Source of the DNA: Candidatus Aminicenantes bacterium
GTDB lineage: Bacteria; Acidobacteriota; Aminicenantia; UBA2199
NCBI GenBank assembly: GCA_029938635.1
Contig: JAOZUQ010000004.1
Span: forward strand, 8,513-72,512
Length of the DNA stretch: 64,000 bases
Direction: 5' to 3'
Shown here: one piece after another, positions 8,640 to 38,577 of the stretch
Layout: each line of letters begins with the position of its first letter
Position numbering within the stretch: position 1 is the stretch's first letter
Notes under the pieces: model-generated
What the model was told of the DNA's origin: nothing
The model's input: the letters and a program-made list of their open reading frames with translations, nothing else
The model's database searches: none
Made by a program: the position numbers and the translations under genes

Positions 8640-9401
8640 TTAGTTTCCCGGATCTTTAACACATCTGAATCCGAGCCAGGGGAGCGACCGTTTTACAGGA
8701 AAGGGTGTCCGGGTGGAATATTTTATATCATTTCTGATGTTAGTCCATGCACCACCTCTGATTACTCCTACCTTCTGGCTGTTCCTGTTTTTCCCGATCA
8801 ATAGATCAGTCGGATAAGCACTTGTTGTCCACTCGAAAATATTCCCTATATGATCATAAAATCCTATATCATTTGGTGGAGTTGAAAAAACAGGAGAAAT
8901 GGTTTTTCTCTCCATCTCAAAAAAAACACCGTTTTTTTCTTTGTAGAACATGGAAAGGGTCGATTGATAGTCTTTCTTCAATGCCCTTGCAGCAATTTCC
9001 CATTCCCATTCTGTCGGAAGCCTTTTGCCGGCGAATTCAGCATATCTCTCAGCATCTTTAAGACTAACTCCCGTTACCGGATTTGCCGGCATCTTTTCAG
9101 CCGAAGTTTTATTGAATTTCCCATCCGGCTGAAAGTCTGTTCTCTCCAAAAAAACAAGAAATTGGGAATTCGTAACAGGATGTATATCTATATAAAAACC
9201 TTCAAATACCCTCTTTGTGGGAGGAGATTTATCTCTGGAACCCTTGTCTCCGGTAAAATATTCACCTTTCGGAATGAAGATCATTGATGATCCTCCCGGT
9301 TTGAGAGATTCCAGATACCGGCTCTGATTCTTCAAATTCATATAGGATGATGGTAGCAGCATGTAAAATGAGAAAATTAAGATTAATAATTGTTTTTTCA
9401 T
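8640..9401 (-). CDS. FGE-sulfatase (SUMF1/formylglycine-generating-enzyme-like) domain protein, secreted.
   Basis: 253 aa with a signal peptide. Blocks GFYIDIHPVTNSQF, GVSLKDAERYAEFAGKRLPTEWEWEIAAR, GNIFEWT and RGGAWTN...GFRCV match the FGE-sulfatase domain family. 4-bp overlap with the upstream gene. Confidence 0.65.
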   Translation of the reverse strand: MKKQLLILIFSFYMLLPSSYMNLKNQSRYLESLKPGGSSMIFIPKGEYFTGDKGSRDKSPPTKRVFEGFYIDIHPVTNSQFLVFLERTDFQPDGKFNKTSAEKMPANPVTGVSLKDAERYAEFAGKRLPTEWEWEIAARALKKDYQSTLSMFYKEKNGVFFEMERKTISPVFSTPPNDIGFYDHIGNIFEWTTSAYPTDLLIGKNRNSQKVGVIRGGAWTNIRNDIKYSTRTPFPVKRSLPWLGFRCVKDPGN

Positions 9402-10708
9402 TTTTTCAGGTATTTCCTCATGTAAAAAAGGATCTTCTGTTGTTCAGAGCTTCTTATGAACCTCACGGCAGGGCCATTTTCGGACCTGGACTTCTCGAGA
9501 TCCAGAAATTCACGAAATTTCCTGAAGTTCATTAACATAATGAGATCAACTGATAGTTCATTGTTATTTACAGCTTTTATTGCGAAGTAATGATAGAAAC
9601 CCGGGAATAGGACTGCAATCCTTTCAGGATCGATATCAGGGTCTTCCCGAAGGAAATTGAGCGCTCCGTTAACTTCCATATCACAAAGATTTATCTTTGT
9701 CTTTTTTCTGCATGCCCTCTTTGTATTCGGAGCAAGAACAGCAAATCCTTTATCAACAAGAGTATTAATAAGTTCATCATAATAGAGCCTTGTTTCTGAT
9801 TCGGGGGGATATATCAGCAGAGCCGGAATTATTGATTTTCCGGCAGGTTTTCTGAATGTTGCATTTATCGGCATGTTATCGGTCGAAAAAAAGGTGATCA
9901 TATCCTTTGGTTTAGGGTTTTTCACAATCCCGTCAGCTTCCTTATCGATTCCGAATACTTCTGCAAAAAAATCGGCTATATGGTTTTGTATCTCAGGTAT
10001 TTCATCAAAAACAAATGTTCCGTGAGCGGGGAGTGTAAAAGGGGTTTCTGTTTTTTCAATCAGCAAATTTCTTGACAAGGGATTCAGGCTTCTTGCTGTA
10101 TATTCTTCCATAAGAAGATAATGGTTCCCGTCTAAAATACTTGCAATATTGAAAATAGCCAGGTCAGAGTTCCTTGTTATCCATTCCCTCGATTCTTCTC
10201 TCAGGATAGGGCCGGATATGATAACATTTGCTATTATGTCCGGATTGTTCTGTATTGCATACATCCCTGTCTCTACTGTAAAACTGGCTGTGATTATCCC
10301 CGTCTTCCCCTTCCTGGTAAAGTCAAGTGAGCTTAAGTATTCTAAAGCATCTTTCAGATCGGTTATTCTTTTAGCGCTGAGGTTTGCCCTCTGCCTGACA
10401 AAATTGGGCGCAAGTGTAACAATACCCTTTTTTGCAAACATCGGGAAAAGTTTTAAAAAATCATCGCGGTTCCCTGATAGTTGATGGAAGCATGCAACAG
10501 AAGGGTATTTGTTTTTCCCCGGATTCTCCGGTCTCAGCAGAAAAGCACTCAATTCAAATCCATCCCGGGTTTTAAAAGTAATTTCATCAATAACCCAGTC
10601 CCTCTCTTTTTTCATACTCAGATATACGAAAAGTGATGCAGCGAAAAGGAGGGCAAAGGTGAAAATTATAATTTTAATTGAACGGCTGTTTATTTTTATT
10701 GCTCTCAA
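9398..10708 (-). CDS. Membrane-anchored hypothetical protein with two tandem alpha/beta-hydrolase-like (dienelactone-hydrolase/S9-like) modules. No canonical GxSxG.
   Basis: 436 aa with an N-terminal TM anchor. Two ~200-aa halves each carry a 'P(S/A)(V/L)xxxH/P...(K)GxxxLAPN' core (…YPSVACFHQLSG…AKKGIVTLAPN / …IPALLIYPPE…VDKGFAVLAPN). 4-bp overlaps (ATGA-type) with both neighbours. Confidence 0.3.
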   Translation of the reverse strand: MRAIKINSRSIKIIIFTFALLFAASLFVYLSMKKERDWVIDEITFKTRDGFELSAFLLRPENPGKNKYPSVACFHQLSGNRDDFLKLFPMFAKKGIVTLAPNFVRQRANLSAKRITDLKDALEYLSSLDFTRKGKTGIITASFTVETGMYAIQNNPDIIANVIISGPILREESREWITRNSDLAIFNIASILDGNHYLLMEEYTARSLNPLSRNLLIEKTETPFTLPAHGTFVFDEIPEIQNHIADFFAEVFGIDKEADGIVKNPKPKDMITFFSTDNMPINATFRKPAGKSIIPALLIYPPESETRLYYDELINTLVDKGFAVLAPNTKRACRKKTKINLCDMEVNGALNFLREDPDIDPERIAVLFPGFYHYFAIKAVNNNELSVDLIMLMNFRKFREFLDLEKSRSENGPAVRFIRSSEQQKILFYMRKYLKK

Positions 10709-12054
10709 TTTCCGATATATCCCAGGGTTTCCAGCTTTTTCTGTTCTTCCGCTGTCAATTTTGTTTTTTGGGAGATGTGCTTGTTATCCTCTATCATACG
10801 GATATATCTTTTCAGTATCTTGTACATACTGAAGAACATTTTTTTATTTGAATCAAACTGATTGTTTTTTTCCGGTTTGTCCCCGCTAAGGTCATATAAT
10901 TCAAATTTGTTATTTTCAAAATCCCTGATTAGTTTCCAGCCTTTATGGACGATCGCACATTGATTATATAGAGTGTCATATTTTTTTTCATTAACCTCCA
11001 TAAAGATCGTCTCCGGCCCTTTTTCAGCCAGAATACTTGTTCCCCTGAAAGAATCCGGAATTTCGATCCCGGCAACATCCAGGATCGTTGGAGAAATATC
11101 AATATTTGAAAAGTTCGGGCGAATATTCGCATTTCTTTCAAAATCTTCGGGTAATTTTAGAATAAATGGAATTTTAGTCTGCTCATTAAACAATGACTGG
11201 CCGTGTCCGAGTGTTCCCCGTTCGCCAAATTCTTCTCCATGATCTGAAACTATCACAATTATTGTATTTTCATAAAGGTGCTGCTGTTTAAGTTTTTCGA
11301 TAACTCGTTCTATATACATGTCTGTAAATCTGATCTCGCTCCTGTAGCACTCATTAAAATAATCGAGGTCATTCTGAGAGAAAAGGTTTTTCTTTATGAT
11401 CTCAGCTTTTTCGGACTCATTCCTGTCGGGGAGAAAAGGGCCCGAATAAGAGGATTTGTTTTCATGATCAACATATCTGTAATGAGGGTCAAAATAGTGG
11501 AGGAACATGAAGAAAGGTTTCCCCCGGCTCTCCTCAATTATTTTTATTGCTTCGGAAGTGACAACCGGTGATGTTATGGAAAACAGATTGTTGTCCGAAG
11601 AATCGATCTTTTCCAGATATGTGTCAAAGCCCTGCCCGAGGCCATATTTTTTCTTCAGGAATATGTGTGTTATTACACCGTGGGTTTTGTATCCGTTCTC
11701 TTTTAGAACCTCTGCCAGAGTAATGAATTTTTCATCTATTTTAGAATTTCTCTTTACAACACCTATCTCAGAAGGGAATTTAGATGTGATCATTGATGAT
11801 ATCGAAGGGAGGGTCCAGGGCGCATTAGAATAAGATGCTCCGAAATATGCGGAATTATTTTTGAACAATTTTTTTAATGCCGGTGTTTCTCCGGACTTAT
11901 CGTTGCCCATATTCGTATGATCGGCTCTTAATGTATCAATTATTATGAAGACCACATTTGGTGGTGGATCTTTCTTGAAAATCATTAATCCGATGAAAAA
12001 AAAAGCTGTTATTAACAATATAACAAAGAATGATTTTTTCACTGATGATCTCAT
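10705..12054 (-). CDS. Sulfatase/alkaline-phosphatase superfamily (PF00884-type) protein, membrane-anchored. Thr at the nucleophile position.
   Basis: 449 aa. IIDTLRADHT metal-binding block, and SDHGEEFGERGTLGHG near the C-terminal end of the catalytic domain. The CxPxR position reads W-T-L-P-S-I (Thr, no Arg) by by-eye alignment. Ends ...KLETLGYIGN. Confidence 0.65.
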   Translation of the reverse strand: MRSSVKKSFFVILLITAFFFIGLMIFKKDPPPNVVFIIIDTLRADHTNMGNDKSGETPALKKLFKNNSAYFGASYSNAPWTLPSISSMITSKFPSEIGVVKRNSKIDEKFITLAEVLKENGYKTHGVITHIFLKKKYGLGQGFDTYLEKIDSSDNNLFSITSPVVTSEAIKIIEESRGKPFFMFLHYFDPHYRYVDHENKSSYSGPFLPDRNESEKAEIIKKNLFSQNDLDYFNECYRSEIRFTDMYIERVIEKLKQQHLYENTIIVIVSDHGEEFGERGTLGHGQSLFNEQTKIPFILKLPEDFERNANIRPNFSNIDISPTILDVAGIEIPDSFRGTSILAEKGPETIFMEVNEKKYDTLYNQCAIVHKGWKLIRDFENNKFELYDLSGDKPEKNNQFDSNKKMFFSMYKILKRYIRMIEDNKHISQKTKLTAEEQKKLETLGYIGN

Positions 12055-12167
12055 GTTTAAACTCTTGTTTTTACCCCTTTCACCTGCTTAAATAATATAT
12101 CATAGTGGTATGGCCTAATCAAGTCAGGTATACACGAAATGGATTAAAAGCTAATTGCAATCGGCTC

Positions 12168-14027
12168 TTATAAATAGCCCAGAGTTTTCAATTTCTCTCT
12201 ATCTTTATCAGTTACTTTCAGAGGGATGCCTTTTATTTTATGAGCAAAAACTTTCCTTTTTATCTGTCTTATCTTCTCTTTGAGATCTGTTAGAACTTTC
12301 TTAAACTTCGGATCTCCGGAGAGGTTGTTTCTTTCTGAAAAATCAGTACTAAGATCGTAAAGTTCATATTCTTTGTAGTCGGGGAGAGGAAATTTTGTGT
12401 AAAAAATATTCATTTCATCTGAATATTTAAAATTATATATGAGTTTATATTTCCCGTTGATCACAGATATCATCTGCGGTACCTGGGATAGCTTTAATTT
12501 TGACCCCATATGTATTAGAATCGACTCAATATCTCTCTCATTTCTGTAACTTTCAGGATCTTTCAGCAATGGTAGAAGTGATATCCCGTCTGTATCAAAT
12601 TCGTAAGAAATATCAAGGTAATCAAGAATAGTAGGAAGAATATCAATTATAGAACAATTCTGATTGATCCTATTCCCTTTATATTCTCCCGAAGGGAATT
12701 TTATCAGGAGGGGGATGTGAATAGTTTCATTATAGAGGTTGTTCCCATGCCCCCATGCTCCGTGTTCAAAGAATTCTTCTCCATGATCAGACATGAATAT
12801 TATCATCGAATTTTCATACATTCCTGATTTTTTCAAGGCATTGATGAAGTATCCGAACCAGTGATCGAAGAATTCAAGCTCGGCATCGTAAGAAGATATG
12901 ATCCCGCTCTTTTGTTTTTCACTTCTGGGCCTGTAAGTGAATTTACGATCATGCTCTGCCAGTTTGTATGGAAAAGAGAAACCTGTTGTATGTTCTGTTG
13001 TATGGACACTATCTGAATATTTCAGTCCGGGATGGAGTCTGAAAGGGCTGTGAACCTGATAGGTATGGAGGAAGTTAAAGGAATTGCCAAGGCCATTTGT
13101 TTTTGCCAATTTAATCGCATGTTCAAACATTTTCTTTGAAAATATAGAGGATCTCCACTTCCTTGAAATATATTGGTCAAATCCCCTGTAGAACCCATAT
13201 TTGTAATTCACAAATACTCCTTCATTCATACTTATTGAATATCTGTCTTCAGAGAGCAATTCTGTGAAAACTGGAATCTTTTCTGAAAGTCTCAAGTGCT
13301 TGTTGTAAACCCCGTGGTTGTAAAGATTTTTTGATGTAAAAAGGGATAAATGTGATGGTAACGTCCAGGAAGTTGTAGAAAAACAATTATCGAAAATCGC
13401 ACAATCCTCTGCGAACCTGTCAATATTCCTGGTTACATTCATGTCATATCCGTATATTCCCAGATGATCTGCCCTCAGTGTGTCTGCAACTATCAGGAAT
13501 ATCGGGTTTTTATTTCTGACCTTCAGATAAACCGGTTCAGATACAAATATCTCCGAATTTCCTTCAATATCTACGAATATTTCCGAAGAGCCGGTAAGTT
13601 TCAGGATCTGATCGAATTTAACACTTCTTCCTACTTTTGAGAATTCACTGACTGTTTTTCTTCTCCCGTTCGAGGCAAGGCTTACAATGATCTTCAGATC
13701 AGGATCATTGGTTTTTTTAAATTGTCCGATAGTAAAATATACAAAAGTATCACCCTTTAATTCAGGTTTGAATACCAGGGTTTTTGATTTTTTGATCTTA
13801 TAAAATTTTGATCTGTAAGTGGTTTTTTCCCTTTGAACAAAATGATATCTTGATTTACTATCTATGCCCAGAAGTGGTTTTATTCCCTTGTAATCTGATT
13901 TTTCAGACTCAGTTAATTCAAGTTTTCCCCTTTCGAATTTTATGTCTTCTTTTGAGCAGGATATCAGAATTGTAAGTAACATTAACAGGATGATCCATTT
14001 ATTCACTTTGTGAAAATTTTCCCTCAT
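12168..14027 (-). CDS. Sulfatase/alkaline-phosphatase superfamily lipoprotein with a ~170-aa N-terminal extension. Thr-type.
   Basis: 619 aa. Lipobox LISC. IVADTLRADHLG and SDHGEEFFEHGAWGHG blocks. Active-site position S-W-T-L-P-S-H. Ends ...KLKTLGYL. GGAGGA RBS. Confidence 0.6.
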   Translation of the reverse strand: MRENFHKVNKWIILLMLLTILISCSKEDIKFERGKLELTESEKSDYKGIKPLLGIDSKSRYHFVQREKTTYRSKFYKIKKSKTLVFKPELKGDTFVYFTIGQFKKTNDPDLKIIVSLASNGRRKTVSEFSKVGRSVKFDQILKLTGSSEIFVDIEGNSEIFVSEPVYLKVRNKNPIFLIVADTLRADHLGIYGYDMNVTRNIDRFAEDCAIFDNCFSTTSWTLPSHLSLFTSKNLYNHGVYNKHLRLSEKIPVFTELLSEDRYSISMNEGVFVNYKYGFYRGFDQYISRKWRSSIFSKKMFEHAIKLAKTNGLGNSFNFLHTYQVHSPFRLHPGLKYSDSVHTTEHTTGFSFPYKLAEHDRKFTYRPRSEKQKSGIISSYDAELEFFDHWFGYFINALKKSGMYENSMIIFMSDHGEEFFEHGAWGHGNNLYNETIHIPLLIKFPSGEYKGNRINQNCSIIDILPTILDYLDISYEFDTDGISLLPLLKDPESYRNERDIESILIHMGSKLKLSQVPQMISVINGKYKLIYNFKYSDEMNIFYTKFPLPDYKEYELYDLSTDFSERNNLSGDPKFKKVLTDLKEKIRQIKRKVFAHKIKGIPLKVTDKDREKLKTLGYL

Positions 14028-14118
14028 TTATCCTCCGGTCACAATTATTGCCATCAACAATTTCTTCATGATCCTGATACTATTATAACATATACTTCAA
14101 GTTCTCCGGCCCGGGCAA

Positions 14119-14135
14119 GTGACAATTATTGTCAC
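14119..14135. promoter_or_regulatory. Perfect 8-1-8 palindrome GTGACAAT-T-ATTGTCAC in a divergent intergenic region. Candidate operator.
   Basis: Read directly from the sequence. A related half-site, GTCACAATTATTG, lies at 14038..14050, abutting the RBS of the minus-strand sulfatase-like gene. Confidence 0.35.
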
Positions 14136-14264
14136 TATTGTATGGTTTTTGTAAAAATGGTTGAAAAAAAAATCTGAATATGTAATACTATAGTGGGATT
14201 TCGGATTGGCATGAAAGTTGCATTGTAAGTAATGGTTAAAAAAAGCACATTGAATGGAGCATTT

Positions 14265-17200
14265 ATGAAAAAGCTAATATTTCTCTCTTTTATTATATTT
14301 ATCTCATTTTTTACCATAAATAGTCAGACTGTAAGCTCTCTCGGGATCACAGGGACCTATTATGACATAAGAGCAGATAATAACGGTAATATCCATATTC
14401 TATGGATCGATAACGGATGGGCTAAGTATGGACAGATCGTAAACCGACAGGTTGTCAACCAGGTCACTATAAATGTTGTTGACTGGAATGAGGTGAATTA
14501 TAGAAAGGTTCGCCCCAGGCTGTCTGTAAAACCGGATGGCAGCGAGGTCCATTTTGTATGGGTAACACCTTTTTTCAAATCAAAGGACTTCATACACTGC
14601 TGGAGAGATTCGGGAGGGACCTGGAGAAGGGAGAAAATAGTCACAGTTAAAAACTTTTGTCTTGCTCCTACTTTTACGGTCGATTCGAGCGGAGTGTACC
14701 ATGCTGTTGTTATTGAAGATACCGGCGGTTCCCTTCTTCATCCTGTTGCCTATTGGCGGAAAGCTCCGGGCGGGGGATGGATAAAGAAGACAAATCTCGC
14801 TCCTGCAACAAAAGAACATTTATGGCCGAATCTTTTTACCGATATGAACGGTAACGTACATATCACCTGGGATGAGGATAAAGATATAATCAAATACAGG
14901 TATGCCGCTTCCGGGGGAGATCTTTCGACAAGTGCAACAATGACATTATCTAATCTCCATCCCCATAATAAGCAGAGTGAAATATTTGCCGATGCATCGG
15001 GAAATGTTTATGTTGCGGCTCTCTCATATTATACCCCCGGGACCCAGGGTGGAATTGATTATTGGGTCAAACCGGTCGGCGGATCTTTTTCAACATCGGT
15101 GAGAATTTCCGGCCCGGATTTTCCTTTAAAGGAATATTTCCCTTTTCCGGCAGTCATTGCACGATCACCTGACATGGTAGCTGTTTCCTGGGCTCAGACT
15201 AAATATCTAACACAACCTGCTGCGATAGGTGTTGCTGTCTATGACGGTGCCTGGCAGCCTGTAGAGTATCTTTCTACAACAGCAAACTTCAAGGCAGATA
15301 CAAGAACAACGATGGCAATGAACGATGAAACTGCATTTATGGTTTGGAGAGAAGGAGACCAGATGTTATATCTGGCAACATTTGATTATGCACTTTTCGG
15401 AGTCCTTTCCCCGAATGGAGGAGAGAACTGGAGTATTAATAGAACTTATGAGATTCGATGGAATCTTGAGAATGCAACAGGCAATGTTAATATAAACCTC
15501 TATAAAAATAGTGTAAACCTGGGCCCGGTTGCATCTGATGTAGCAGATGCCGGTTCTTTCAATTGGACTATCAATACTCTTGAAAGTGGAGCCTCTATTG
15601 AGACAGGAGTAGATTATCAGATCGAAGTTAGAGCAGTGAATGATTCTGATTCTGATATGTCAAGTGCTTTTTTTACTATTGATTATGCATTTGAAATTAC
15701 TTCTCCTGTTTCCAGTAGTGCCTGGGAGATCGGACAGAACTATAACATTACATGGACTAGTCCCGCGATTTCATCACCAACTGTAAAGTTAAATATATAC
15801 AAAGATTCAATACTTGTTGAAAATTTTGTTGAACAGCTTACCGGCCCCAATTCCGGTTCGTACAGCTGGACAATTCCATCTTCTTATGTAGCGGGGAATT
15901 ATATAATAAGATTAAAAACAGAAGACGGCCTTCTTATTGATGACAGTGACTTATTTAGTATTACCGGAACTTCAACTCTTCCATCGATCACGGTAACCTC
16001 TCCGACCTCAAGTGATACCTGGGACAAGGAGAGTACGTACGACATAACCTGGGAAAAAACCGGGACCCAATCTGCTAATGTGAAAATAAATGTATTCAGA
16101 AATTCGATCGATGTTGCAAATTTTGTGGAACAATTAACCGGGCCGAATTCCGGATCCTACAGTTGGACGATCCCCGGGACCTATGCTACCGGTAATTATA
16201 TCCTCAGGCTTAAGACCGATGACGGGCTTTTATCCGATGATAGTGATGTTTTTGCCATCTCAGGCGGCGGTTCGACCACTCCGTCGCTCACGATCACTTC
16301 TCCCACTTCGAGTGATACCTGGGACAAAGGAAGCACGTATAACATAACATGGGACAGGAATGGTACATTGTCGGCCAATATAAAGATCAATGTATATAAA
16401 GATTCAATACTGGCTGGAAATTTTATTGAGCAGTTAACAGGACCGAATTCCGGTACATACAGCTGGACCATCCCCGGTACCTATACAGCAGGGAATTATA
16501 TTCTCAGGATGAAGACAGATGATAATCTGGTAACAGATGACAGTGATGTGTTTGTTATTGCAGAGAACTCAACAACTCCCTCTATCACGATCACTTCTCC
16601 CACTTCGAGTGATACCTGGGACAAAGGAAGCACGTATAACATAACATGGGACAGGAATGGTACATTGTCGGCCAATATAAAGATCAATGTATATAAAGAT
16701 TCAATCCTGGTTGAAAATTTTATTGAGCAGTTAACAGGCCCCAATTCGGGTACCTACAGCTGGACCATTCCGGGAACTTATACAGCAGGGAACTATATTC
16801 TCAGGATGAAAACAGACGATAATCTGGTGTCAGATGACAGTGATGTTTTCCAGATCACTGACGGAGGAAGTGTAACACCTACAATGACCATAATTTCTCC
16901 TTCGTCATGCAGCTCCTGGCCGAGAAATAATACTTATACAATAACCTGGCTGAAAGACGGAACGATGTCAGCTAATGTTATAGTTAACATTTATAAAGAT
17001 TCAATTGATGTGGGGAATTTTGTTGAACAGTTGGCCGGTCCTAACACAGGATCCATGATCTGGGCAATTCCTAGTTATTATGAGGCCGGGAATTACATCA
17101 TAAGATTGAAAACTGATGATGACCAGGTCTCAGATGACAGTGATCTGTTTGCGGTTAACAGTTCTATAGTGAGTACTCCGAAAATAACTGTAACTTCTCC

Positions 17201-17465
17201 AACATCATGTGATACCTGGAGTAAACTGAAAACCTATAAAATTGCATGGTCAAAGGCCGGGACAATGTCTGATAATGTGAAAATAAATATTTACAAAGAT
17301 TCAATAGAGACCCCAAATTTTGTTCAGCAGCTCACCGGGCCTAATACAGGATCTATTGACTGGACCATTCCCGGAGCTTATGTGAACGGGAATTATATTT
17401 TACGTATAAAAACTGTTGATAGTGCAGTTATCGGTGATAGTAATGTATTTGTAGTAACAAACTAA
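14265..17465 (+). CDS. Large secreted repeat protein: beta-propeller-like N-terminal region plus about seven tandem ~99-aa Ig-like (Kre9/KNH-like) domains.
   Basis: Signal peptide MKKLIFLSFIIFISFFTINSQ (an in-frame upstream ATG at 14232 is also possible). The N-terminal ~380 aa carry repeated 'DxxGNxHxxW'-type blades. Then come repeated units ITSPTSSDTWDKGSTYNITW...NIKINVYKDSI...NFIEQLTGPNSGTYSWTIPGTYTAGNYILRMKTDD...SDDSDVF, separated by Ser/Thr-rich linkers. Confidence 0.6.
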   Translation: MKKLIFLSFIIFISFFTINSQTVSSLGITGTYYDIRADNNGNIHILWIDNGWAKYGQIVNRQVVNQVTINVVDWNEVNYRKVRPRLSVKPDGSEVHFVWVTPFFKSKDFIHCWRDSGGTWRREKIVTVKNFCLAPTFTVDSSGVYHAVVIEDTGGSLLHPVAYWRKAPGGGWIKKTNLAPATKEHLWPNLFTDMNGNVHITWDEDKDIIKYRYAASGGDLSTSATMTLSNLHPHNKQSEIFADASGNVYVAALSYYTPGTQGGIDYWVKPVGGSFSTSVRISGPDFPLKEYFPFPAVIARSPDMVAVSWAQTKYLTQPAAIGVAVYDGAWQPVEYLSTTANFKADTRTTMAMNDETAFMVWREGDQMLYLATFDYALFGVLSPNGGENWSINRTYEIRWNLENATGNVNINLYKNSVNLGPVASDVADAGSFNWTINTLESGASIETGVDYQIEVRAVNDSDSDMSSAFFTIDYAFEITSPVSSSAWEIGQNYNITWTSPAISSPTVKLNIYKDSILVENFVEQLTGPNSGSYSWTIPSSYVAGNYIIRLKTEDGLLIDDSDLFSITGTSTLPSITVTSPTSSDTWDKESTYDITWEKTGTQSANVKINVFRNSIDVANFVEQLTGPNSGSYSWTIPGTYATGNYILRLKTDDGLLSDDSDVFAISGGGSTTPSLTITSPTSSDTWDKGSTYNITWDRNGTLSANIKINVYKDSILAGNFIEQLTGPNSGTYSWTIPGTYTAGNYILRMKTDDNLVTDDSDVFVIAENSTTPSITITSPTSSDTWDKGSTYNITWDRNGTLSANIKINVYKDSILVENFIEQLTGPNSGTYSWTIPGTYTAGNYILRMKTDDNLVSDDSDVFQITDGGSVTPTMTIISPSSCSSWPRNNTYTITWLKDGTMSANVIVNIYKDSIDVGNFVEQLAGPNTGSMIWAIPSYYEAGNYIIRLKTDDDQVSDDSDLFAVNSSIVSTPKITVTSPTSCDTWSKLKTYKIAWSKAGTMSDNVKINIYKDSIETPNFVQQLTGPNTGSIDWTIPGAYVNGNYILRIKTVDSAVIGDSNVFVVTN
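15400..17460 (+). repeat. In-frame tandem coding repeats, period about 297 bp (99 aa), about 7 units. Units starting at 16291 and 16588 share about 125 bp of perfect identity.
   Basis: Direct sequence comparison: 16291..~16415 is identical to 16588..~16712, with about 90% identity over the rest of the unit. Flanking units are about 75-80% identical. Reflected in the near-identical antisense shadow ORFs 16196..16471 and 16496..16744. Confidence 0.7.
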
Positions 17466-17603: not shown

Positions 17604-17629
17604 TAAAGATGATAAACAAGGAGGAAATC

Positions 17630-19009
17630 ATGAAAAAACTATTTATATTTTCATTCATTCTGGCAGTAACGATGGGGATGATCTATTCACAGAGTATTAC
17701 TGTGACATCACCATCGGGTGGTACATGGTACAAAGGTTCTACACATAACATCACATGGACAGCGACAGGGTGTTCAAGTTCCAGTTATAAGATCAATATT
17801 TTCAGGGGTTCAATTGATCCTGCAAATTTTGTTGAACAACTTACCAAAACAGGAACGCCTGCGAAGAGCTGGACAATACCTATGGGTTATACAAACGGGA
17901 CCTATTACATCAGGATTAAGACTGACCCGGCTCAGCCCGGATGCCAGGGAGACAGTAGTGCTTTTACAATCACAGATCCTTCCTCACCCGGGCCGGGGAC
18001 AGCAGCTTCAATTACGGTTACCAACCCTACTACCGGGACTAAATGGGGCAGAGGTACTACAAAGACTATAACCTGGGATAAGAGTGGGGATCTGGATTCA
18101 AATATCAAAATAAATATCTTCAGGAATTCTATTTCTGAAGCTAATTTTGTTGAACAATTAACCGGGTCTAATAATGGTTCTAAAAGTTGGAATATCCCGG
18201 CATCTTATGATCTGGGGACATATTATTTGAGGATAAAAGAAGCTGTTGGTACAGTACAGGGGGACAGCAGGGCGTTTGAGATCATTAATCAGATGTATGT
18301 ATTTACACCGCTTGTAGCGACCATGTTTAAACCTCACTCAATTAAGATAACAGAACCGAGCGGCAGGGATCTTGCCCTTAACAGCAGGATGAAGATATTG
18401 TGGAGACCTAAAAACCTTACCAACAATGTGAAGATCTCCCTGATGAAGAACGGAGAATTTTTCGGTGTTATTGAGGAGAATCTTGCTCCCGGAAGGATTT
18501 CTACTGAATGGACAATCGGAAGGACGCTGATTAAAACTGCAACACCTGATTCAGGATTTAAAATAAAAATTGAAGAGACTGGTGTCGCTAATGTATCTGC
18601 TGAAAGTGCTGTCTTCAGTATAATAGATGAAAAGAACATTGATCTGAGCTGTTATATCTCAGGACACAGCTCCAGGGATTACGGGAGAGTTGTCAGGCTG
18701 ACCGTAAAAGTGAGGATAAACAATTTTGGTGGCCCCCCTCTTGCGAGAGTTCCGGTTCAGGTTTCTGTCAGGACCCAGGGTTCTACACCAGGATCTGGAG
18801 AGACAAAGACCAAATATCTTGAAAATGTCACTTACAGAGGACACAGCTATGAGTATAGTCTCAGTTTTGATTTCAGGCTGCATAGCGGAAGCAGGTATGA
18901 TTCACGGAGGTCACTAGGTAGAGTGGCTACGGTAGTTGTTGATCCCGGAGATTCTTTCCGTGACAGAAGGATAAGGAACAACACTTCAACTTATACTTTT
19001 AGTTTTTGA
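17630..19009 (+). CDS. Secreted repeat protein, paralog A: signal peptide, two Kre9/KNH-like Ig domains, a third divergent Ig-like domain, and a CARDB-like C-terminal domain.
   Basis: Start moved to the ATG at 17630, 7 nt after AAGGAGG (the ORF track starts at 17609). MKKLFIFSFILAVTMGMIYSQ signal. ITVTSPSGGTWYKGSTHNITWTATGCSSSSYKINIFRGSIDPANFVEQL... C-terminus ...VVVDPGDSFRDRRIRNNTSTYTFSF is CARDB-like. Confidence 0.6.
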   Translation: MKKLFIFSFILAVTMGMIYSQSITVTSPSGGTWYKGSTHNITWTATGCSSSSYKINIFRGSIDPANFVEQLTKTGTPAKSWTIPMGYTNGTYYIRIKTDPAQPGCQGDSSAFTITDPSSPGPGTAASITVTNPTTGTKWGRGTTKTITWDKSGDLDSNIKINIFRNSISEANFVEQLTGSNNGSKSWNIPASYDLGTYYLRIKEAVGTVQGDSRAFEIINQMYVFTPLVATMFKPHSIKITEPSGRDLALNSRMKILWRPKNLTNNVKISLMKNGEFFGVIEENLAPGRISTEWTIGRTLIKTATPDSGFKIKIEETGVANVSAESAVFSIIDEKNIDLSCYISGHSSRDYGRVVRLTVKVRINNFGGPPLARVPVQVSVRTQGSTPGSGETKTKYLENVTYRGHSYEYSLSFDFRLHSGSRYDSRRSLGRVATVVVDPGDSFRDRRIRNNTSTYTFSF

Positions 19010-19033
19010 TGCTTAAAATAGATCACAATTTAA

Positions 19034-19066
19034 GGCTCCCGGAGAGATCCGGGGGCCTTTTTTTTT
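19034..19066 (+). terminator. Rho-independent terminator (GGCTCCCGG-AGAGAT-CCGGGGGCC plus T9).
   Basis: GC-rich hairpin followed by a T-run immediately after the stop at 19009. The identical hairpin recurs after the next paralog. Confidence 0.7.
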
Positions 19067-19186: not shown

Positions 19187-20389
19187 ATGAAAAAGTCAGT
19201 AATAATTTTATTTGTTTTGTTTGTGTCGATTGGGATGATATATTCTGCCAATTTGACAGTTAATCAACCATCAGGAGGCACCTGGTATAAGGGAACCACG
19301 CACAACATCACCTGGACAGCAACCGGATGTAGCAGTACCAGTTATAAGATCAACATTTTCAGGGGTTCAATTGATGAGTCAAATTTTGTCGAACAACTTA
19401 CCAAAACAGGAACGCCTACGAAGAGCTGGACAATACCTATGGGCTATACGAACGGGACTTACTACATCAGGATCAAAACAGATCCGGCACAGCCCGGATG
19501 TCAGGGAGACAGTGCTGCATTTACGATCACTGATCCCTCCTGTGCGCCTTCGATCACTGTAACAAATCCGACCGGATCATCACAATGGTGCCGTGGACAA
19601 AGCAGCAACATAACGTGGACTTCTTCAGGTTCCCTTAATGCGAATGTAAAGATCAATATTTTCAAGAATTCAATTAATCAGGCAAATTTTGTACAACAAC
19701 TGACAGCTACAACTGCCAGCGGTTCAAAGAGCTGGGCGATCCCGGCCTCTGCTGCAACCGGCACATATTTTGTAAGGATAAAAGAGGCGGTTGGGACAGT
19801 TTACGGAGACAGTCCCGGATTCCAGGTTAAAGATTGCGGAACAACACCAAGTGGTCCTTCATGTTCATCTTTTGTGGTTTATAAACCTGCAAAAGATGAT
19901 GTAAAGTGGATTGGTTTCCCTATGGTAGTAAAATGGAAATATAAGAAGCTGATGTTTCCGGGCACTTTGAAGTCAAAAAAAGTTCTTCTGGCTCAAAAAG
20001 CTCATCTGGCTGTAAAACCGGTCCTGGAAGCGTCATTGGTAAAGATGGTCAAGATTGAGATCAAAAGTGTGAAATGTTTTTCAATTGGACAATTAGTACC
20101 CAGATTAAGAGAAATGTATGTAAAGAAGAAAGTATCTCTCGAAAAGATCAATACTCTAATGAAGATTCCGTTCCTTGTTGAGATGTTAAAATGGAAAACA
20201 CTTAAAGCAATGACCCCTGATGATGGATCTGAATTAGTAATAATTCCTTCATCCTATAAAAAGGGGTGTTATGTGATAAGAGTTACCAAGTTGTGGTGTA
20301 CTTCAAGTGATTCGGACAGAAGAGCTACTTCAGAAAAATTTTCACTGATCCCGTTGCAAATTCCCGGGTATTTAGTAGAAGCATTATAG
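19187..20389 (+). CDS. Secreted repeat protein, paralog B: conserved N-terminal signal plus two Ig-like domains, then a divergent Lys-rich C-terminal module.
   Basis: The N-terminal 190 aa are about 85-90% identical to paralogs A and C. The C-terminal ~180 aa are lysine-rich (…KWKYKKLMFPGTLKSKKVLLAQKAHLAVKP…). The other two frames contain stops, so this is not a frameshift artefact. The ends retain a weak Ig-repeat pattern (VVYKPAKDDVKW…GSELVIIPSSYKKGCYVIRVTK). Confidence 0.6.
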   Translation: MKKSVIILFVLFVSIGMIYSANLTVNQPSGGTWYKGTTHNITWTATGCSSTSYKINIFRGSIDESNFVEQLTKTGTPTKSWTIPMGYTNGTYYIRIKTDPAQPGCQGDSAAFTITDPSCAPSITVTNPTGSSQWCRGQSSNITWTSSGSLNANVKINIFKNSINQANFVQQLTATTASGSKSWAIPASAATGTYFVRIKEAVGTVYGDSPGFQVKDCGTTPSGPSCSSFVVYKPAKDDVKWIGFPMVVKWKYKKLMFPGTLKSKKVLLAQKAHLAVKPVLEASLVKMVKIEIKSVKCFSIGQLVPRLREMYVKKKVSLEKINTLMKIPFLVEMLKWKTLKAMTPDDGSELVIIPSSYKKGCYVIRVTKLWCTSSDSDRRATSEKFSLIPLQIPGYLVEAL

Positions 20390-20418: not shown

Positions 20419-20451
20419 AGGCTCCCGGAGAGATCCGGGGGCTTTTTTTTT
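20419..20451 (+). terminator. Rho-independent terminator, same hairpin as at 19034 (GGCTCCCGGAGAGATCCGGGGGC plus T-run).
   Basis: Identical stem-loop sequence to the terminator after paralog A, followed by T9. Confidence 0.7.
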
Positions 20452-20558: not shown

Positions 20559-21689
20559 ATGAAAAAATTATTTATATTTTCATTAGTTTTTGTAGTAGCA
20601 ATGGGCCTGGTATATTCAGCCGGGCTTACAGTAAATTCACCATCGGGTGGAACATGGTACAAAGGAACAACTCATAACATCACATGGACAGCGACAGGGT
20701 GTTCAAGCTCCAGTTATAAGATCAATATCTTCAGGGGGTCAATTGATCCTGCTAATTTTGTAGAACAACTTACCAAAACAGGAACTCCCACAAAGAGCTG
20801 GACAATACCTATGAGCTATACGAACGGGACCTATTACATCAGGATCAAAACAGATCCGGCACAGCCCGGATGTCAGGGAGACAGTGCTGCATTCACGATC
20901 ACGGATACTCCTACACCCGCCACATCAGCGATAACTATTACACACCCGACAGCAGGCGAAGAATTCTGCAGGGGACAGGGGGAGACAATATCATGGACCC
21001 ATACCGGTACATTGAGTGCAAATGTAAAGATCAATATATTCAGAGGTTCAATTGATCCTGCAAATTTTGTAACACAGCTTACGGCTACTACTGCAAGTGG
21101 ATCCAAAATATGGAATGTTCCTGCGGCTCAGGCATTAGGAACAAATTATCATGTTCGGGTGAAAGAGGCTACTCTCGGAACAACAAGTGGAGACAGCCCT
21201 GCATTTACAGTTGCAAATTGTGACGGAGGAAGTGGTCCGGGACTCGATCCGGGACTTATTGAAAGGCTTAAGGACTTGATGAGACGTCTTGAAAGGATCC
21301 CATGGTGGAGAAATCCAAAAGGCCCATGGCCTGGACCCGGACCGGGACCATGTCTTTCCTGCCCGGTGTTTGATCTTCAAAAACTTAGGGACTTGCTGAA
21401 AGAAGTTGGGTTAAAGGAAGAGATCGGAATTGCTCTGTATAATGGCGGACAGAAAATTGCTGATTTTGGAAAATTCGGCCCTCCCTCGCGCTTAGGAAGA
21501 AAGGGTTTGAAATTAAACAGACTAAAAGGGATGAAACTTATGCAAAACAGAGTAGGTCTGAAAAGTATTAAGATGGAACATACTAAAATGTTGAGCAGAG
21601 GTACAGGTTTTAAACTTGTATTCATCAATTCGAAGGGAAAAATGATCGGAGACTCCGGGATAAAACTGGAAGAGAAAGTAATGAAATAA
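20559..21689 (+). CDS. Secreted repeat protein, paralog C: conserved N-terminal Ig-like domains, a PGPGPGP linker, and a basic Gly/Lys/Leu-rich C-terminal module.
   Basis: MKKLFIFSLVFVVAMGLVYSA signal. Two Kre9/KNH-like domains. C-terminus …PWPGPGPGPCLSCPVFDLQKLRDLLKEVGLKEE…RLGRKGLKLNRLKGMKLMQNRVGLKSIKME…. Confidence 0.6.
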   Translation: MKKLFIFSLVFVVAMGLVYSAGLTVNSPSGGTWYKGTTHNITWTATGCSSSSYKINIFRGSIDPANFVEQLTKTGTPTKSWTIPMSYTNGTYYIRIKTDPAQPGCQGDSAAFTITDTPTPATSAITITHPTAGEEFCRGQGETISWTHTGTLSANVKINIFRGSIDPANFVTQLTATTASGSKIWNVPAAQALGTNYHVRVKEATLGTTSGDSPAFTVANCDGGSGPGLDPGLIERLKDLMRRLERIPWWRNPKGPWPGPGPGPCLSCPVFDLQKLRDLLKEVGLKEEIGIALYNGGQKIADFGKFGPPSRLGRKGLKLNRLKGMKLMQNRVGLKSIKMEHTKMLSRGTGFKLVFINSKGKMIGDSGIKLEEKVMK

Positions 21690-21713
21690 GCTTTGTAAAA
21701 GATTTTAAAATAA

Positions 21714-21743
21714 AGCCCCCGGCAAAAACCGGGGGTTTTTTTT
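21714..21743 (+). terminator. Rho-independent terminator (AGCCCCCGG-CAAAAA-CCGGGGG plus T8).
   Basis: Perfect 9-bp GC stem with an A-rich loop and a T-tract, 25 nt after the stop of paralog C. Confidence 0.7.
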
Positions 21744-21788
21744 ATGAAAGAATTGAATTTAGTGAAATAGCCTTATCGCGGAGGGGAA

Positions 21789-22802
21789 ATGCAGAACAAT
21801 ATTGCATCTTCAAAAGAATTGATATTTGCTGATCTGATAAAAATTACTAAAAAAAGGGCAATCTTGCTTTCCACAGTATTAATATCAGGAATAATTCTTA
21901 TAACACTTTTTTTTACTTTTAAATATCCTCCCGAGGCCTTATCATCAAGGATCTTCTCAGATGATCTCGGAAATATTTTCAGTATAATCAATAGTAAAAA
22001 TAGTTTTTTATCTCCTGATGATATCAACAAACTGATTGATCCCATTATTCAATTAAATATAGAAAAGAAGAAAAAATATAAGATTTCAGTAAAAAACACA
22101 TTTAAAAAAGGGAAAATACACAATTCAGTTGTTGGAGTCCTTGACCTGAATATAAGTAGAAAATTTGCAAAATATGATGAAAAAAGTAAAGTAAAATTTA
22201 CTAGGGATATTGAGGATTTTTTCAGGAAATTTGAGCATCAACTTTTTTTATGGTTTGTTTACAGAGAGAAAATTGAAAAGCTGAAGATCATAGACAACAT
22301 TATAAAAAAAAAAAAAGCAATTGAAGAAGAAGAGAAGAAAATTAGTATTGTAAAAAAATTCAAGGATATCCCCTCAGAAAATTACCGGGATATACTTGAT
22401 ATAGACCCTAGTTATCTTCCTCCTTCCCAGCAATATTACGGGCTTGTTATTGAAATGAATAACCAAAAAAGGCTTCTTGATTTGTTTAATGAAGCCCTTA
22501 TTGAAATAGATGGAATATTGAAAATTATTTCAGATAAAGAGTTGTCATTATTTTCTGAGATTGTAATTATCAAAGACCTGAAGCAGTATGAAATATTATA
22601 TAACAGAGTAAAGTTAATTTCTGAAAATATCCGGATTTTAAAGAATAAACTTATTTTAAGAGGATTTTATCGGTCTGAAAATATCCCGGGAATTTATCTG
22701 ATAGTTTTTTCCTTTTTAATACTCTTTATATTCCTGGTCATTTTAATAAGCTTTATTGAATGGTGGTCCAAAAATAAAGATAAGATTAACATCAGAATAT
22801 AG
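21789..22802 (+). CDS. Wzz-like polysaccharide co-polymerase (chain-length determinant) candidate. Called from topology only.
   Basis: 337 aa. TM1 at about aa 23-44, a Lys/Glu-rich predicted coiled-coil region of about 250 aa, and a C-terminal TM (IYLIVFSFLILFIFLVILISF). This is the PCP-1 architecture. GGAGGGG RBS. Confidence 0.4.
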   Translation: MQNNIASSKELIFADLIKITKKRAILLSTVLISGIILITLFFTFKYPPEALSSRIFSDDLGNIFSIINSKNSFLSPDDINKLIDPIIQLNIEKKKKYKISVKNTFKKGKIHNSVVGVLDLNISRKFAKYDEKSKVKFTRDIEDFFRKFEHQLFLWFVYREKIEKLKIIDNIIKKKKAIEEEEKKISIVKKFKDIPSENYRDILDIDPSYLPPSQQYYGLVIEMNNQKRLLDLFNEALIEIDGILKIISDKELSLFSEIVIIKDLKQYEILYNRVKLISENIRILKNKLILRGFYRSENIPGIYLIVFSFLILFIFLVILISFIEWWSKNKDKINIRI

Positions 22803-22997
22803 TCTCATGTTTCTTTCAATATGAATTTATTTATCTTCAGGTTGTCTTTAATGAAAACAGAACTTATTGTCAATGGAATTATCGTATAATTTTTCAATTG
22901 TGATGTAATATGTTAAAATATATACACAGATATTGAATCTTTTAAAGTTTAACAAAACTGATTTAAATCATTAAATTTATAATGAAGAATTGAAATA

Positions 22998-23717
22998 ATG
23001 CTATTAGTAACTGGAATGCACAGATCTGGGACTTCAATAACAACACAGTTGCTTCTTGAAGCTGGAGCTAAGCTTGGAAATCCTGACAAGCTATTTCCAG
23101 GAGACAAATGGAACCCCGATGGATATTTTGAACAAATGGAGATCCTGGATGTTAATATTTCATTAGTTAACGGGCCTTGGGGGAAATTTTCCTATTTCTC
23201 TCCACCTTCCGAGAATTTAATACTGAAAAGAGCGGAAAAGTTAGAAAATAAAATTAAGGAATTGTCCAGAAATCATATAGACCTAATTGTTAAAGACCCA
23301 AGGTTTTGTCTTACACTATCGGCCTGGAAGCAGTATTATGATGGTATAAAAAAGGTTCTGATCAATGTCAGAGAACCAATTCAAGTGGCCTATTCATTAA
23401 AAAAGCGAAATCATATTTCTATTAGATTGGGATTGAAGTTATGGTATGAACACAATAAAAGGATACTGGAATATGTAAATGATATTCCTCATATTTTTTT
23501 TAATTTTAATAATTTGTTTTCTCCTGAATTATCAACTCTGGAAATTAAGAAAGTATTTAAGTTTTTTGATTTAAATGTAAAGGATTCAAAAATAGATTCT
23601 ATTCTGAACAAATGTGTTAAATCATCTTTAAAACACAATACTATCACTGAATATAAGTATGAAAAAAATATAAGGGAACTTTGGGATCACTTAAAAAACA
23701 AGTGTGGAAGTTATTAA
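22998..23717 (+). CDS. Sulfotransferase (Stf0/NodH-like, PAPS-dependent).
   Basis: N-terminal LLVTGMHRSGTSITTQLL is a 5'-PSB P-loop-like motif. A downstream IVKDPRFCLTLSAW is a 3'-PB-like block. 239 aa. Confidence 0.6.
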   Translation: MLLVTGMHRSGTSITTQLLLEAGAKLGNPDKLFPGDKWNPDGYFEQMEILDVNISLVNGPWGKFSYFSPPSENLILKRAEKLENKIKELSRNHIDLIVKDPRFCLTLSAWKQYYDGIKKVLINVREPIQVAYSLKKRNHISIRLGLKLWYEHNKRILEYVNDIPHIFFNFNNLFSPELSTLEIKKVFKFFDLNVKDSKIDSILNKCVKSSLKHNTITEYKYEKNIRELWDHLKNKCGSY

Positions 23718-23753
23718 TAAGCTAATAATTATAAAGGAATTAGATATAAAAAA

Positions 23754-24416
23754 ATGATAAGTTTAAAAAAAATGAAGTTGAAAATATTTGGGGGGTTGGT
23801 CCCGGAAGGGGAATTGGGGTTGAAAATTATTGGATATCGTAAATATGTCGGAGGCAAATGGGATGAGATAGGAAATTTGCAATTTGATTATCTGATAAAA
23901 CAGGGATTAAAATCTTCTCACAGTTTTCTTGATATCGGTTGTGGTGCGCTAAGGGGCGGGTCAAGGTTTATTGAATACCTAGATGCCGGTAACTATCTTG
24001 GATTTGATAAAGAAAAAAAATTAGTTGAAATTGGTAAGAAGAAAGTTCTTCAAGGAAACTTGTTAAAAGAAAAAAATCCTGAATTTGTAATATCTGATAA
24101 GTTTGAGTTTGACGGATTTTTAAAAAAACCGAATTATTCACTTGCCCTGTCTTTGTTTTCCCATCTAAGTGAAGAAGATATATTGCTTTGCCTGAAAAAT
24201 CTCAGAAAATTTGTCAATAAAGAGCATATATTTTTTGCCACATTTTTTGAGGGTGAATCCGATAGAAACCCAGATAAATCTCATAGTCTTGACCATTTTG
24301 ATTTTACTAGAGAAGAGATGATCAAATTCGGGGAAAGAACAAGCTGGAAGTCGGAATACATCGGAGATTGGGACCATCCGAGAGACCAGAAAATGATCAA
24401 ATATATTGCCGAATAG
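23754..24416 (+). CDS. Class I SAM-dependent methyltransferase.
   Basis: LDIGCGALRGGSRFIE motif I (GxGxG) with a downstream acidic motif II. 220 aa. Confidence 0.65.
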   Translation: MISLKKMKLKIFGGLVPEGELGLKIIGYRKYVGGKWDEIGNLQFDYLIKQGLKSSHSFLDIGCGALRGGSRFIEYLDAGNYLGFDKEKKLVEIGKKKVLQGNLLKEKNPEFVISDKFEFDGFLKKPNYSLALSLFSHLSEEDILLCLKNLRKFVNKEHIFFATFFEGESDRNPDKSHSLDHFDFTREEMIKFGERTSWKSEYIGDWDHPRDQKMIKYIAE

Positions 24417-24429
24417 GAATAGTTAAGAA

Positions 24430-25374: not shown

Positions 25375-25395
25375 AATATTAAAAAATCAAAAAAT

Positions 25396-27408: not shown

Positions 27409-27420
27409 TATGTTTATAAA

Positions 27421-28161: not shown

Positions 28162-28409
28162 TCTATATATATTATCATGAGAAATGTTTTTTTTGAATTA
28201 AGGAATAATTTCTGGCATTACCCCATTTTTTCATATCATATCTCTGTAAATTACTGCCTCCGGATAACGTCATGTCCATCATCATTTCCAACATGAACTT
28301 CTACTCTAAAATATGGGGTGATGACAAAATAGTTTGATTAGATAAGCAATATATTTCATTTTTTTTATGCTATAATTTCAAATTGAAAAATGCTATCAGG
28401 TTTTCCAAT

Positions 28410-29972: not shown

Positions 29973-30035
29973 AAGAAATTATGATGAATATATTCTTTGG
30001 TACTATAGTTTATATATTTTTTTAGAGGTCAAAAT

Positions 30036-32024: not shown

Positions 32025-32053
32025 ATAGTAAATACTTCTATGGGGATAAAAAT

Positions 32054-38573: not shown

Positions 38574-38577
38574 TAAG

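Follow-up and report, generated by a model that had tools for sequence, protein, structure and literature searches.

The secreted protein encoded at positions 14265..17465 (+ strand) of the window, by which we mean the whole 64-kb stretch of DNA analysed here, contains an old tandem array of seven Ig-like Kre9_KNH units. We consider it likely that these units diverged over a long period, that a short tract in one adjacent pair was homogenised later, and that units have been gained and lost in the middle of the array. The gene belongs to an uncultured, environmental lineage of Aminicenantes (Acidobacteriota) and specifies 1066 residues, comprising a signal peptide, a beta-propeller head and the seven units. 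In the database the gene is called from 14265 (MKKLIF...), and its longest open reading frame begins at 14232; translation from 14265 matches protein P0050 of the protein collection (NCBI 123-kb contig) exactly. Searches for exact products of the array gene and of the next gene, each with both starts, and for P0001, the counterpart of the array protein in a second assembly of this species, returned no record. Judged by its architecture, the secreted protein would carry the array as a C-terminal stalk behind an N-terminal head and would be located at the cell surface.

The original prediction of seven in-frame tandem repeats at 15400-17460 was borne out by several methods. TRF reported a tandem array with a period of 297 and a score of 1031, a repeat search recovered six in-frame copies spaced by 297/300 bp, and an HMM built from the units found seven (15396-17462; lengths 294-300 bp), with starts at residues 390..986 of the open frame beginning at 14229. 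No other tandem array scoring >63 and no tRNA gene was found in the window. All units lie on the + strand: U0 (15396..15689), U1 (15690-15986), U2 (15987-16286), U3 (16287..16583, 297 bp), U4 (16584..16883, 300 bp), U5 (16884-17183) and U6 (17184-17462). Over the whole protein, Pfam model PF10342 (Kre9_KNH) scored 160.1 bits against a gathering cutoff of 24.6 (E=2.3e-47), with seven matched stretches. The families that the Pfam scan (E<=0.01) matched to the units were all Ig-like, and the head (residues 1-388) had no match. An AF2 model of U3 (pLDDT 95) predicts a nine-stranded beta-sandwich, the Ig-like fold expected of PF10342, and its best fold matches in the PDB are MG domains of complement C3, Fn3-like modules of CbhA and Ig domains, at an E of only ~2e-3. 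A profile of the unit alignment gave marginal matches to PDB sequences, the best being the 'bacterial immunoglobulin domain B1' (9kvu; E=0.01).

Most of the array is considerably more diverged than had been proposed. Distal units were expected to be 75-80% identical, yet nucleotide identity among all pairs of U1-U6 other than U3/U4 is 60-71%, with the old units U1 and U2 showing 62-71% identity to U3/U4. The divergent U0 shares 44-47% of its nucleotides and 24-29% of its residues with the other units. At third codon positions, the distal unit pairs shown are 37-47% identical, which is near saturation, so that the duplications that built the array are old. U3 and U4 are sisters, and for this pair the predicted identity of ~90% is close to the observed value (87% over the whole unit and 92% in a 281-bp core).

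The relationship between U3 and U4 is a mosaic. The predicted identical stretch is present as an exact tract, although of 121 bp rather than ~125 bp, with one copy in U3 (16288..16408, + strand) and the other in U4 at an offset of 297 (16585..16705, + strand); it is the sole exact direct repeat >59 bp in the window. No difference separates the two units over these 121 bp; the 141 bp that follow hold 16, and 14 of the 17 post-tract differences in a 266-bp core are synonymous third-position changes. Third positions differ at 1/41 sites in the half containing the tract versus 13/47 in the rest (Fisher P=0.0011). Run-length permutation gave P=1.75e-4 for all sites, 1.1e-3 for third positions and, in a repeat run, P=1e-4; these tests presume that all sites are equally variable, which the third-position version corrects in part. 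Third-position identity between U3 and U4 is 98% inside the tract and 72% outside it, and between orthologous units of the window and a MAG contig of a sister species (L001) it is 47-60%. Ranked by third-position identity, the distal unit pairs would thus be the oldest, followed by the separation of orthologous units from that sister species, the U3/U4 split outside the tract and finally the identity within the tract. This pattern fits a recent gene-conversion-like exchange, as the original prediction had suggested. Two other origins for the tract were considered and rejected. Nucleotide-level constraint is contradicted by the comparison between species, in which the half of the unit that holds the tract is conserved less well than the other (75% nucleotide and 51-54% third-position identity). 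That U3 arose from U2 and U4 as a hybrid by unequal crossover is contradicted by the lack of any U2-like block within it, since the informative sites (63 with U3=U4, 10 with U2=U3 and 6 with U2=U4) show no block structure.

It should be noted that the exactness of the tract is known from assemblies rather than from reads, and assembler behaviour may contribute to it. Among the alternatives, the one that survives best, although we regard it as unlikely, is that short-read metagenome assembly or consensus calling produced some or all of the 121-bp identity, in which case the unit count may also be under-called. Two almost identical copies would give rise to bubbles in the de Bruijn graph, and popping these, or assigning reads to the wrong copy during polishing, would leave both copies with the same bases. 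The array protein differs at a single residue between the two assemblies of this species, D697 (GAC, 16353-16355) here versus E in P0001, and this residue falls within the tract copy carried by U3; the tract makes up ~3.8% of the gene. The true tract may therefore consist of 67+53 bp with one mismatch; the difference may also be a polymorphism between strains or have arisen when a bubble was popped. The two assemblies come from slightly different strains, and since their AspRS proteins also differ by 1 aa, D versus E may simply be a SNP. Collapse, which the original prediction had named as a risk, probably occurred at this locus in the sister species, where the Logan contig L002 matches L001 at 100% identity over 4112 bp but lacks precisely one unit of 300 bp (5 units versus 6). 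The junction lies at a shared tract of 31 bp, equal to the k=31 of the Logan assembly, and the loss is therefore probably a collapse artefact. In the window's own gene, however, the NCBI and JGI assemblies concur on 1066 aa and seven units, and 150-bp reads or read pairs span a tract of 121 bp. Bubble popping can remove a few SNPs but cannot yield 1/41 versus 13/47 from even divergence; at the rate of the second half, the half with the tract should show ~11 third-position differences. Logan contigs from SRR21545381 are 99.95-100% identical to the window and represent the same population; one of them (L018) is 100% identical to window positions 9222-14308 and ends at 14308, short of the array.

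Comparison with orthologues shows that unit number does change, but on an evolutionary scale. Orthologous proteins contain 6, 7, 7, 11, 13 and 6 units, and the unit tree places edge units with their positional counterparts and middle units with others of their own species. U0, U5 and U6 are positional orthologues across species, and U5 and U6 each carry one conserved Cys (SPSSCSSW and SPTSCDTW, respectively). Near-identical units occur in two orthologues: L003 (CAYNUG010000016.1) contains an 827-bp perfect repeat at an offset of 873 bp, corresponding to a three-unit duplication, and L006 has five units that are 77-89% identical. The copy-number variation proposed for the array, and the comparison of repeat numbers suggested along with it, are thus upheld between orthologues (6-13 units) but find no counterpart at finer scales. 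A sister lineage sampled twice (L005 and L008, 99.85% identity) has seven units each time with no SNP in the array, and both assemblies of this species (the NCBI 123-kb contig and the JGI 42-kb contig of P0001) encode 1066 aa with seven units. Variation in unit number was therefore seen only between species.

These data also bear on the idea that the locus is actively variable in length, with frequent unit change in the population and seven units as the majority form. In E. coli, rearrangement of tandem repeats, both RecA-dependent and RecA-independent, needs roughly 25-50 bp of homology, and the 121-bp tract at a spacing of 297 bp exceeds this requirement. The wide range of unit numbers among orthologues, the near-identical units of L003 and L006, and an N-terminal head on a tandem stalk like that of the Periscope Proteins (PMC8201768) point in the same direction. 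However, usable homology is confined to one unit pair, as no other pair shares an exact tract of at least 25 bp (at most 17 bp in register), which leaves the U3/U4 tract as the only recombination-competent site. With the remaining synonymous sites saturated, the proposal that the array as a whole is a hotspot does not hold. Given also the equal length in two assemblies of this species and in L005 and L008, and the k=31 artefact that best accounts for the one apparent difference in copy number (L001 versus L002), we consider active length variation distinctly unlikely. A single recent whole-unit duplication without conversion, after which the second half diverged faster, would account for U3 and U4 being sisters over their whole length, but is very improbable indeed, as 13/16 of the second-half differences are synonymous third-position changes, conservation across species is higher in the second half than in the first, and we know of no process that lifts the synonymous rate >ten-fold in half of a 264-bp segment.

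We therefore favour an old array with a later, local homogenisation of U3 and U4. The array would have arisen by old tandem duplications, with synonymous sites subsequently saturating under purifying selection on the fold. U3 and U4 would be the youngest pair, whose split postdates the separation of this lineage from the closest relative sampled. A short non-reciprocal exchange between misaligned units, through intragenic gene conversion or template switching, would later have homogenised the N-terminal 121 bp of both. The tract would be the only homology in the array long enough for recombination or replication slippage, and each event there would delete or insert a single in-frame unit of exactly 297 bp (99 aa). 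Over evolutionary time, the same process may alter the number of mid-array units while the first two and last two stay fixed.

The head (14328..15395, + strand; ~370 aa) contains repeated DxxGxxH motifs and is predicted to be a six- or seven-bladed beta-propeller. An AF2 model based on an alignment of eight orthologues (pLDDT 87, pTM 0.87) is all-beta, and Foldseek matched it in the PDB to a putative neuraminidase (4irt), the Photorhabdus PLL/PHL lectins, the GH145 protein BT3686 and a PL42 lyase. Matches including 4irt, 5mul, 7esl and the PLL lectins have TM scores of 0.65-0.69 and E ~1e-10 at 10-15% sequence identity. The modelled fold is thus a glycosidase/lectin-like beta-propeller, and the likeness to sialidase/BNR-like and GH145/PL42-like enzymes is one of fold. 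A single-sequence query with the head against metagenome and genome contigs retrieved no relatives; alignment-based rescans did, with this species' own contigs not among them. Downstream lie three tandem paralogous genes on the + strand (17609-19009, 19187-20389 and 20559-21689), each encoding two N-terminal Kre9_KNH units and an unrelated C-terminus and each followed by a closely similar terminator-like hairpin. The order of the array gene and its paralogues is kept in the sister-species contig L001, and the locus is linked to what is probably a sulfated-polysaccharide (sulfatase/sulfotransferase) cluster.

Repeat arrays of this general kind are known from several systems. In concerted evolution of tandem arrays through gene conversion, edge repeats are conserved and central repeats are homogenised. 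The present array resembles this model in having edge units that are positional orthologues, central units that cluster by species, and a discrete identical tract in otherwise diverged sister units; it differs in that homogenisation is weak and confined locally to a single tract of one unit pair rather than array-wide. Fibrillar adhesins reportedly combine, following Monzon and Bateman, an adhesive domain with stalk domains. The array protein, which is secreted and multidomain, likewise combines a stalk of Ig-like repeats with a different domain at one end, but its head folds most like glycosidases, lyases and lectins rather than a recognised adhesive domain, and no anchor motif was found by Pfam. 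The adhesin/S-layer-like label of the original prediction was accordingly not established, as the Pfam scan (E<=0.01) found no SLH, sorting, T9SS anchor or recognised adhesive domain. By Pfam, no anchor or sorting domain follows at the C-terminus, where the last unit forms the end of the protein. Por_Secre_tail (PF18962), the mark of T9SS cargo, is likewise absent by Pfam scan; it is found in distant Kre9_KNH-array proteins (e.g., P0010, P0018 and P0019). PF10342 takes its name from fungal cell-wall proteins, and NCBI names proteins of this type 'Ser-Thr-rich GPI-anchored membrane family protein'. Although all seven units match the model, there is no sign here of a GPI anchor or of beta-1,6-glucan synthesis, and the bacterial units serve as tandem modules. 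A full-text literature search for Kre9_KNH returned fungal papers only.

The closest parallel is with the Periscope Proteins (Whelan et al. 2021, PMC8201768), bacterial surface proteins that vary in length and whose tandem arrays consist of highly similar domains; examples are Sgo_0707 SHIRT, SasG/Aap, Rib/alpha-C, Esp and CdrA. Shared features are an N-terminal head on a rod of ~100-aa tandem beta-sandwich domains, a unit number that varies among relatives (6-13), near-identical units in L003 and L006, and intragenic recombination as the proposed mechanism. The long, highly identical DNA repeats of those proteins are not seen here, where only U3/U4 reach 87% and other pairs show 44-71%; L003 and L006 come closer. 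Further differences are that most of the array is not recombination-competent, that no variation in length was seen at strain level (two assemblies; L005/L008), that Pfam found no cell-wall or outer-membrane anchor, that the repeating domain is Kre9_KNH (PF10342), and that the host is uncultured and environmental rather than a pathogen.

The array protein is an ordinary, routine addition to the variable-length repeat-stalk surface proteins, and its analysis raises no new question. The main value of the results is practical: counts of Ig-like units should not be trusted from k-mer-limited assemblies, of which L002 is a clean example, and repeat 'hotspots' are better judged by the length of exactly shared tracts than by the presence of repeats, here one pair among seven units. 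The locus also offers an example, from an uncultured phylum, of a head-plus-stalk architecture in which evolutionary turnover is limited to the middle units. A broader possibility, which we hold to be quite doubtful, is an undescribed Aminicenantes 'periscope' system in which a propeller head on a Kre9_KNH stalk always lies beside three short Kre9_KNH paralogues in a sulfatase/sulfotransferase polysaccharide island, with the U3/U4 tract as its active switch point. If this were true, mid-stalk recombination would tune the projection of a glycan-binding or glycan-cleaving head through a sulfated capsule.

The longest open reading frame across the repeat region, 14232..17465 (+), encodes 1077 aa, and the public gene call begins at its second Met (14265, MKKLIF...), giving a 1066-aa product that is matched exactly by a database protein (P0050) from a 123,038-bp NCBI contig. 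The protein begins with a hydrophobic signal peptide that lacks a lipobox Cys. This is followed by a head of ~370 aa for which the Pfam scan gave no match, and then by seven stretches that match PF10342, the Kre9/KNH-like N-terminal Ig-like domain (160 bits versus a cutoff of 24.6). An HMM made from the units likewise gives seven units, and TRF and a direct-repeat finder both recover the same array, bearing out the original prediction of seven in-frame tandem units. These Ig-like units start at 15396 (U0), 15690 (U1), 15987 (U2), 16287 (U3), 16584 (U4), 16884 (U5) and 17184 (U6), all on the forward strand and in frame, with a size of 279-300 bp and a start-to-start spacing of 294-300 bp. The 75-80% identity claimed for the distal units was wrong, as pairs among U1-U6 other than U3/U4 share 60-71% nucleotide identity and U0 shares 44-47% with the other units (about 25% in amino acids). 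Third-codon-position identity in the distal pairs shown is 37-47%, near saturation for a genome of ~37% GC, which argues that most of the array is ancient and upheld at the protein level only. When all array units were compared, no pair except U3/U4 contained an exact shared tract of at least 25 bp.

The longest exact match between U3 and U4, at an offset of 297 bp, spans 121 bp (16288-16408 = 16585-16705), so that the predicted ~125 bp of identity at 16291/16588 was essentially right; the predicted overall identity of ~90% likewise agrees with 87% over the whole unit and 92% over its 281-bp core (90% in amino acids). The differences between U3 and U4 are spread very unevenly, as a mosaic: only two fall in the first 123 nt of the unit, at its first base and at the base directly after the tract. 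The following 141 nt contain 16 differences (13 at third positions), and in the linker beyond, the two units are unlike at almost all codons and also differ by an indel. Permutation of the longest run gave P=1.75e-4 for all sites and 1.1e-3 for third positions only (P=1e-4 in a repeat run), and third-position differences number 1/41 in the tract half versus 13/47 in the rest (Fisher P=0.0011).

A second assembly bears on the exactness of the tract. The array protein of a 42,430-bp JGI contig (P0001) is equal in length to that of the window, with seven units in both assemblies, and differs at one of 1066 residues, D697 in the window (GAC, 16353-16355) being E in the JGI protein, at a site within the tract as it occurs in U3. 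Since its AspRS is also one residue off, the JGI assembly represents a slightly different strain, and an ordinary SNP may thus account for the D/E difference. Alternatively, it may reflect a copy-specific base that was smoothed away by one assembler; with the E base counted, the tract splits into 67+53 identical bases around a single mismatch, which still leaves the mosaic in place. DNA-level selection as the cause of the identity was rejected, as conservation between species is lower in the half that holds the tract (75% nucleotide identity versus 78-81% in the other half; 51-54% versus 57-66% at third positions). An origin of U3 as an unequal-crossover hybrid involving U2 was also rejected, the informative sites (63 with U3=U4, 10 with U2=U3, 6 with U2=U4) being without block structure.

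To place these events on a relative time scale, we used third-position identity, which is 37-47% in the old intragenic pairs shown, 47-60% between orthologous units of the window and its nearest relative (L001), 72% between U3 and U4 outside the tract and 98% inside it. The simplest account of U3/U4 would be a two-step history, in which a unit duplication, or the last full-length homogenisation, postdated the species split and was followed much later by a short non-reciprocal exchange that took in the first 121 bp of the unit or more. The U3/U4 finding is real, holds up statistically and is of an ordinary kind.

Orthologous loci were retrieved with a profile of the head domain, and their units were counted by HMM: six in L001 and L006, seven each in the window, L005 and L008, 11 in L004 and 13 in L003. 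In a neighbour-joining tree, U0, U1, the penultimate unit (SPSSCSSW type) and the last unit (SPTSCDTW type) cluster by position across species, and the middle units cluster by species. This is the classical pattern of unit turnover limited to the interior of the array, and between species such turnover is real. In the 13-unit orthologue a block of three units is duplicated in tandem, as a perfect direct repeat of 827 bp with an offset of 873 bp (11960-12786 and 12833-13659). Either the event is of very recent date, or the number of copies assembled for that co-assembled MAG is uncertain, the repeat being longer than short reads. Five units of L006 share 77-89% identity, and several of the identical runs among them are significant. 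No change is seen at the strain level: L005 and L008, with seven units each, match at 99.85% over 14.8 kb, and all 22 SNPs between them lie outside the array. The MAGs carrying L003 (CAYNUG01) and L005 (CAYRAO01) are titled 'uncultured Clostridia bacterium', a label that looks doubtful; other orthologues and the relatives of the window's AspRS carry Acidobacteriota or Aminicenantes labels. By its named AspRS relatives, the source of the window belongs to an Aminicenantes/Acidobacteriota lineage.

The only apparent copy-number difference was found in the sister species, with six units in L001 (NCBI MAG GCA_039714475.1) versus five in L002 (a Logan contig, SRR27843389). L002 is 100% identical to L001 across all its 4112 bp, bar one 300-bp in-frame deletion whose junction lies in a 31-bp tract common to two adjacent units (L001 6888-6918, +300). 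Logan assemblies are built on 31-mers, all of them distinct, and therefore cannot retain a repeated 31-mer twice; the difference almost certainly stems from assembly collapse and says nothing for biological variation. The original reading of the array as a hotspot of copy-number change, conversion or collapse was correct in part, its collapse warning being supported for the family by the loss of exactly one unit in L002. Another Logan contig, L018 (SRR21545381, the same population as in the window), is 100% identical to window 9222-14308 and ends ahead of the Ig array, at an imperfect 18-bp tandem repeat in the signal-peptide-coding region (14277-14313).

The unit is modelled as a nine-strand beta-sandwich (pLDDT 95) resembling complement C3 MG domains, Fn3-like modules and Ig domains, with weak fold-search E-values (~2e-3). 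The head is modelled as a six- or seven-bladed beta-propeller (pLDDT 87, pTM 0.87), and its nearest solved folds (TM 0.65-0.69, 10-15% sequence identity) are a Bacteroides 'putative neuraminidase' (4irt), Photorhabdus fucose-binding lectins, GH145 (BT3686) and the PL42 rhamnose-glucuronate lyase, which suggests a putatively carbohydrate-binding or carbohydrate-active head. The Pfam scan found no anchor or sorting domain in the array protein, and the last unit forms the C-terminal end in all orthologues. U5 and U6 (16884-17462) each have one conserved Cys at matching positions (SPSSCSSW / SPTSCDTW), and three orthologues have both types as well, as the terminal pair in P0004 and P0007 and as an adjacent internal pair in P0002; this Cys may form an inter-domain or intermolecular disulfide or serve as an attachment site.

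Gene order around the array gene matches that in L001. Upstream and divergent are two sulfatases, an unknown protein and an FGE-type sulfatase-maturing enzyme; the sulfatase of 619 aa on the minus strand (12168-14027) carries a lipoprotein-like N-terminal extension of ~170 aa that the L001 homologue lacks. Downstream are three tandem paralogues with two Kre9_KNH units at each start, gB (17609-19009), gC (19187-20389) and gD (20559-21689), the latter two with Lys-rich C-termini. Their first 420-650 nt are held in common (the two units being 72-83% identical), their C-termini are unrelated, and behind each gene stands a terminator-like hairpin, much alike in all three cases (19033-19065, 20419-20451, 21713-21745). 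A 59-bp exact tract is common to gC and gD (19463 / 20835). These genes form a second layer of duplication, at the level of whole genes, with conversion possible there. Further downstream, a low-GC island (22000-42000; 28-30% versus about 37-40% GC) encodes a Wzx-like flippase, Wzy-like (Wzy_C) proteins, GT2/GT4 glycosyltransferases, methyltransferases, a sulfatase and three sulfotransferases (22998, a weak match; 36735; 37707), and probably serves the biosynthesis of a sulfated polysaccharide. The window has three separate membrane proteins of the Wzy_C (O-antigen ligase/polymerase-like) type (34347-35684, 44162-46084, 61242-63083). Four sulfatases and the FGE-type maturase (8640-14027, 28383-29972, 49295-50878) share the 64 kb with several sulfotransferases, and sulfate-ester making and removal are thus encoded side by side. 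It is reasonable to infer that the array protein is a surface or matrix protein, whose stalk would keep a glycan-directed head at a fixed distance within a sulfated polysaccharide layer.

In E. coli, RecA-dependent recombination requires ~25-50 bp of exact homology, and RecA-independent slippage between close tandem repeats climbs steeply with homology length. By analogy, the 121-bp tract at 297-bp spacing would provide enough homology for recombination or slippage; the other units share at most 17 bp in register, which would be too short, and the array outside U3/U4 would be frozen. The closest concept is the class of Periscope Proteins, in which a head is carried on a tandem stalk and length variation is driven by high DNA identity between repeats (PMC8201768). 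The array protein is like these in architecture and interspecies length variation, but the defining high DNA identity, tested here across the array, was found only in U3/U4, and strain-level length variation was not seen in the assemblies compared. We class it not as a demonstrated Periscope Protein but as working in the manner of a Periscope type that is weakly active and has largely decayed. If the gene does change in length, the predicted change is a gain or loss of 297 bp at U3/U4, which would leave a protein of 6 or 8 units, still able to fold fully.
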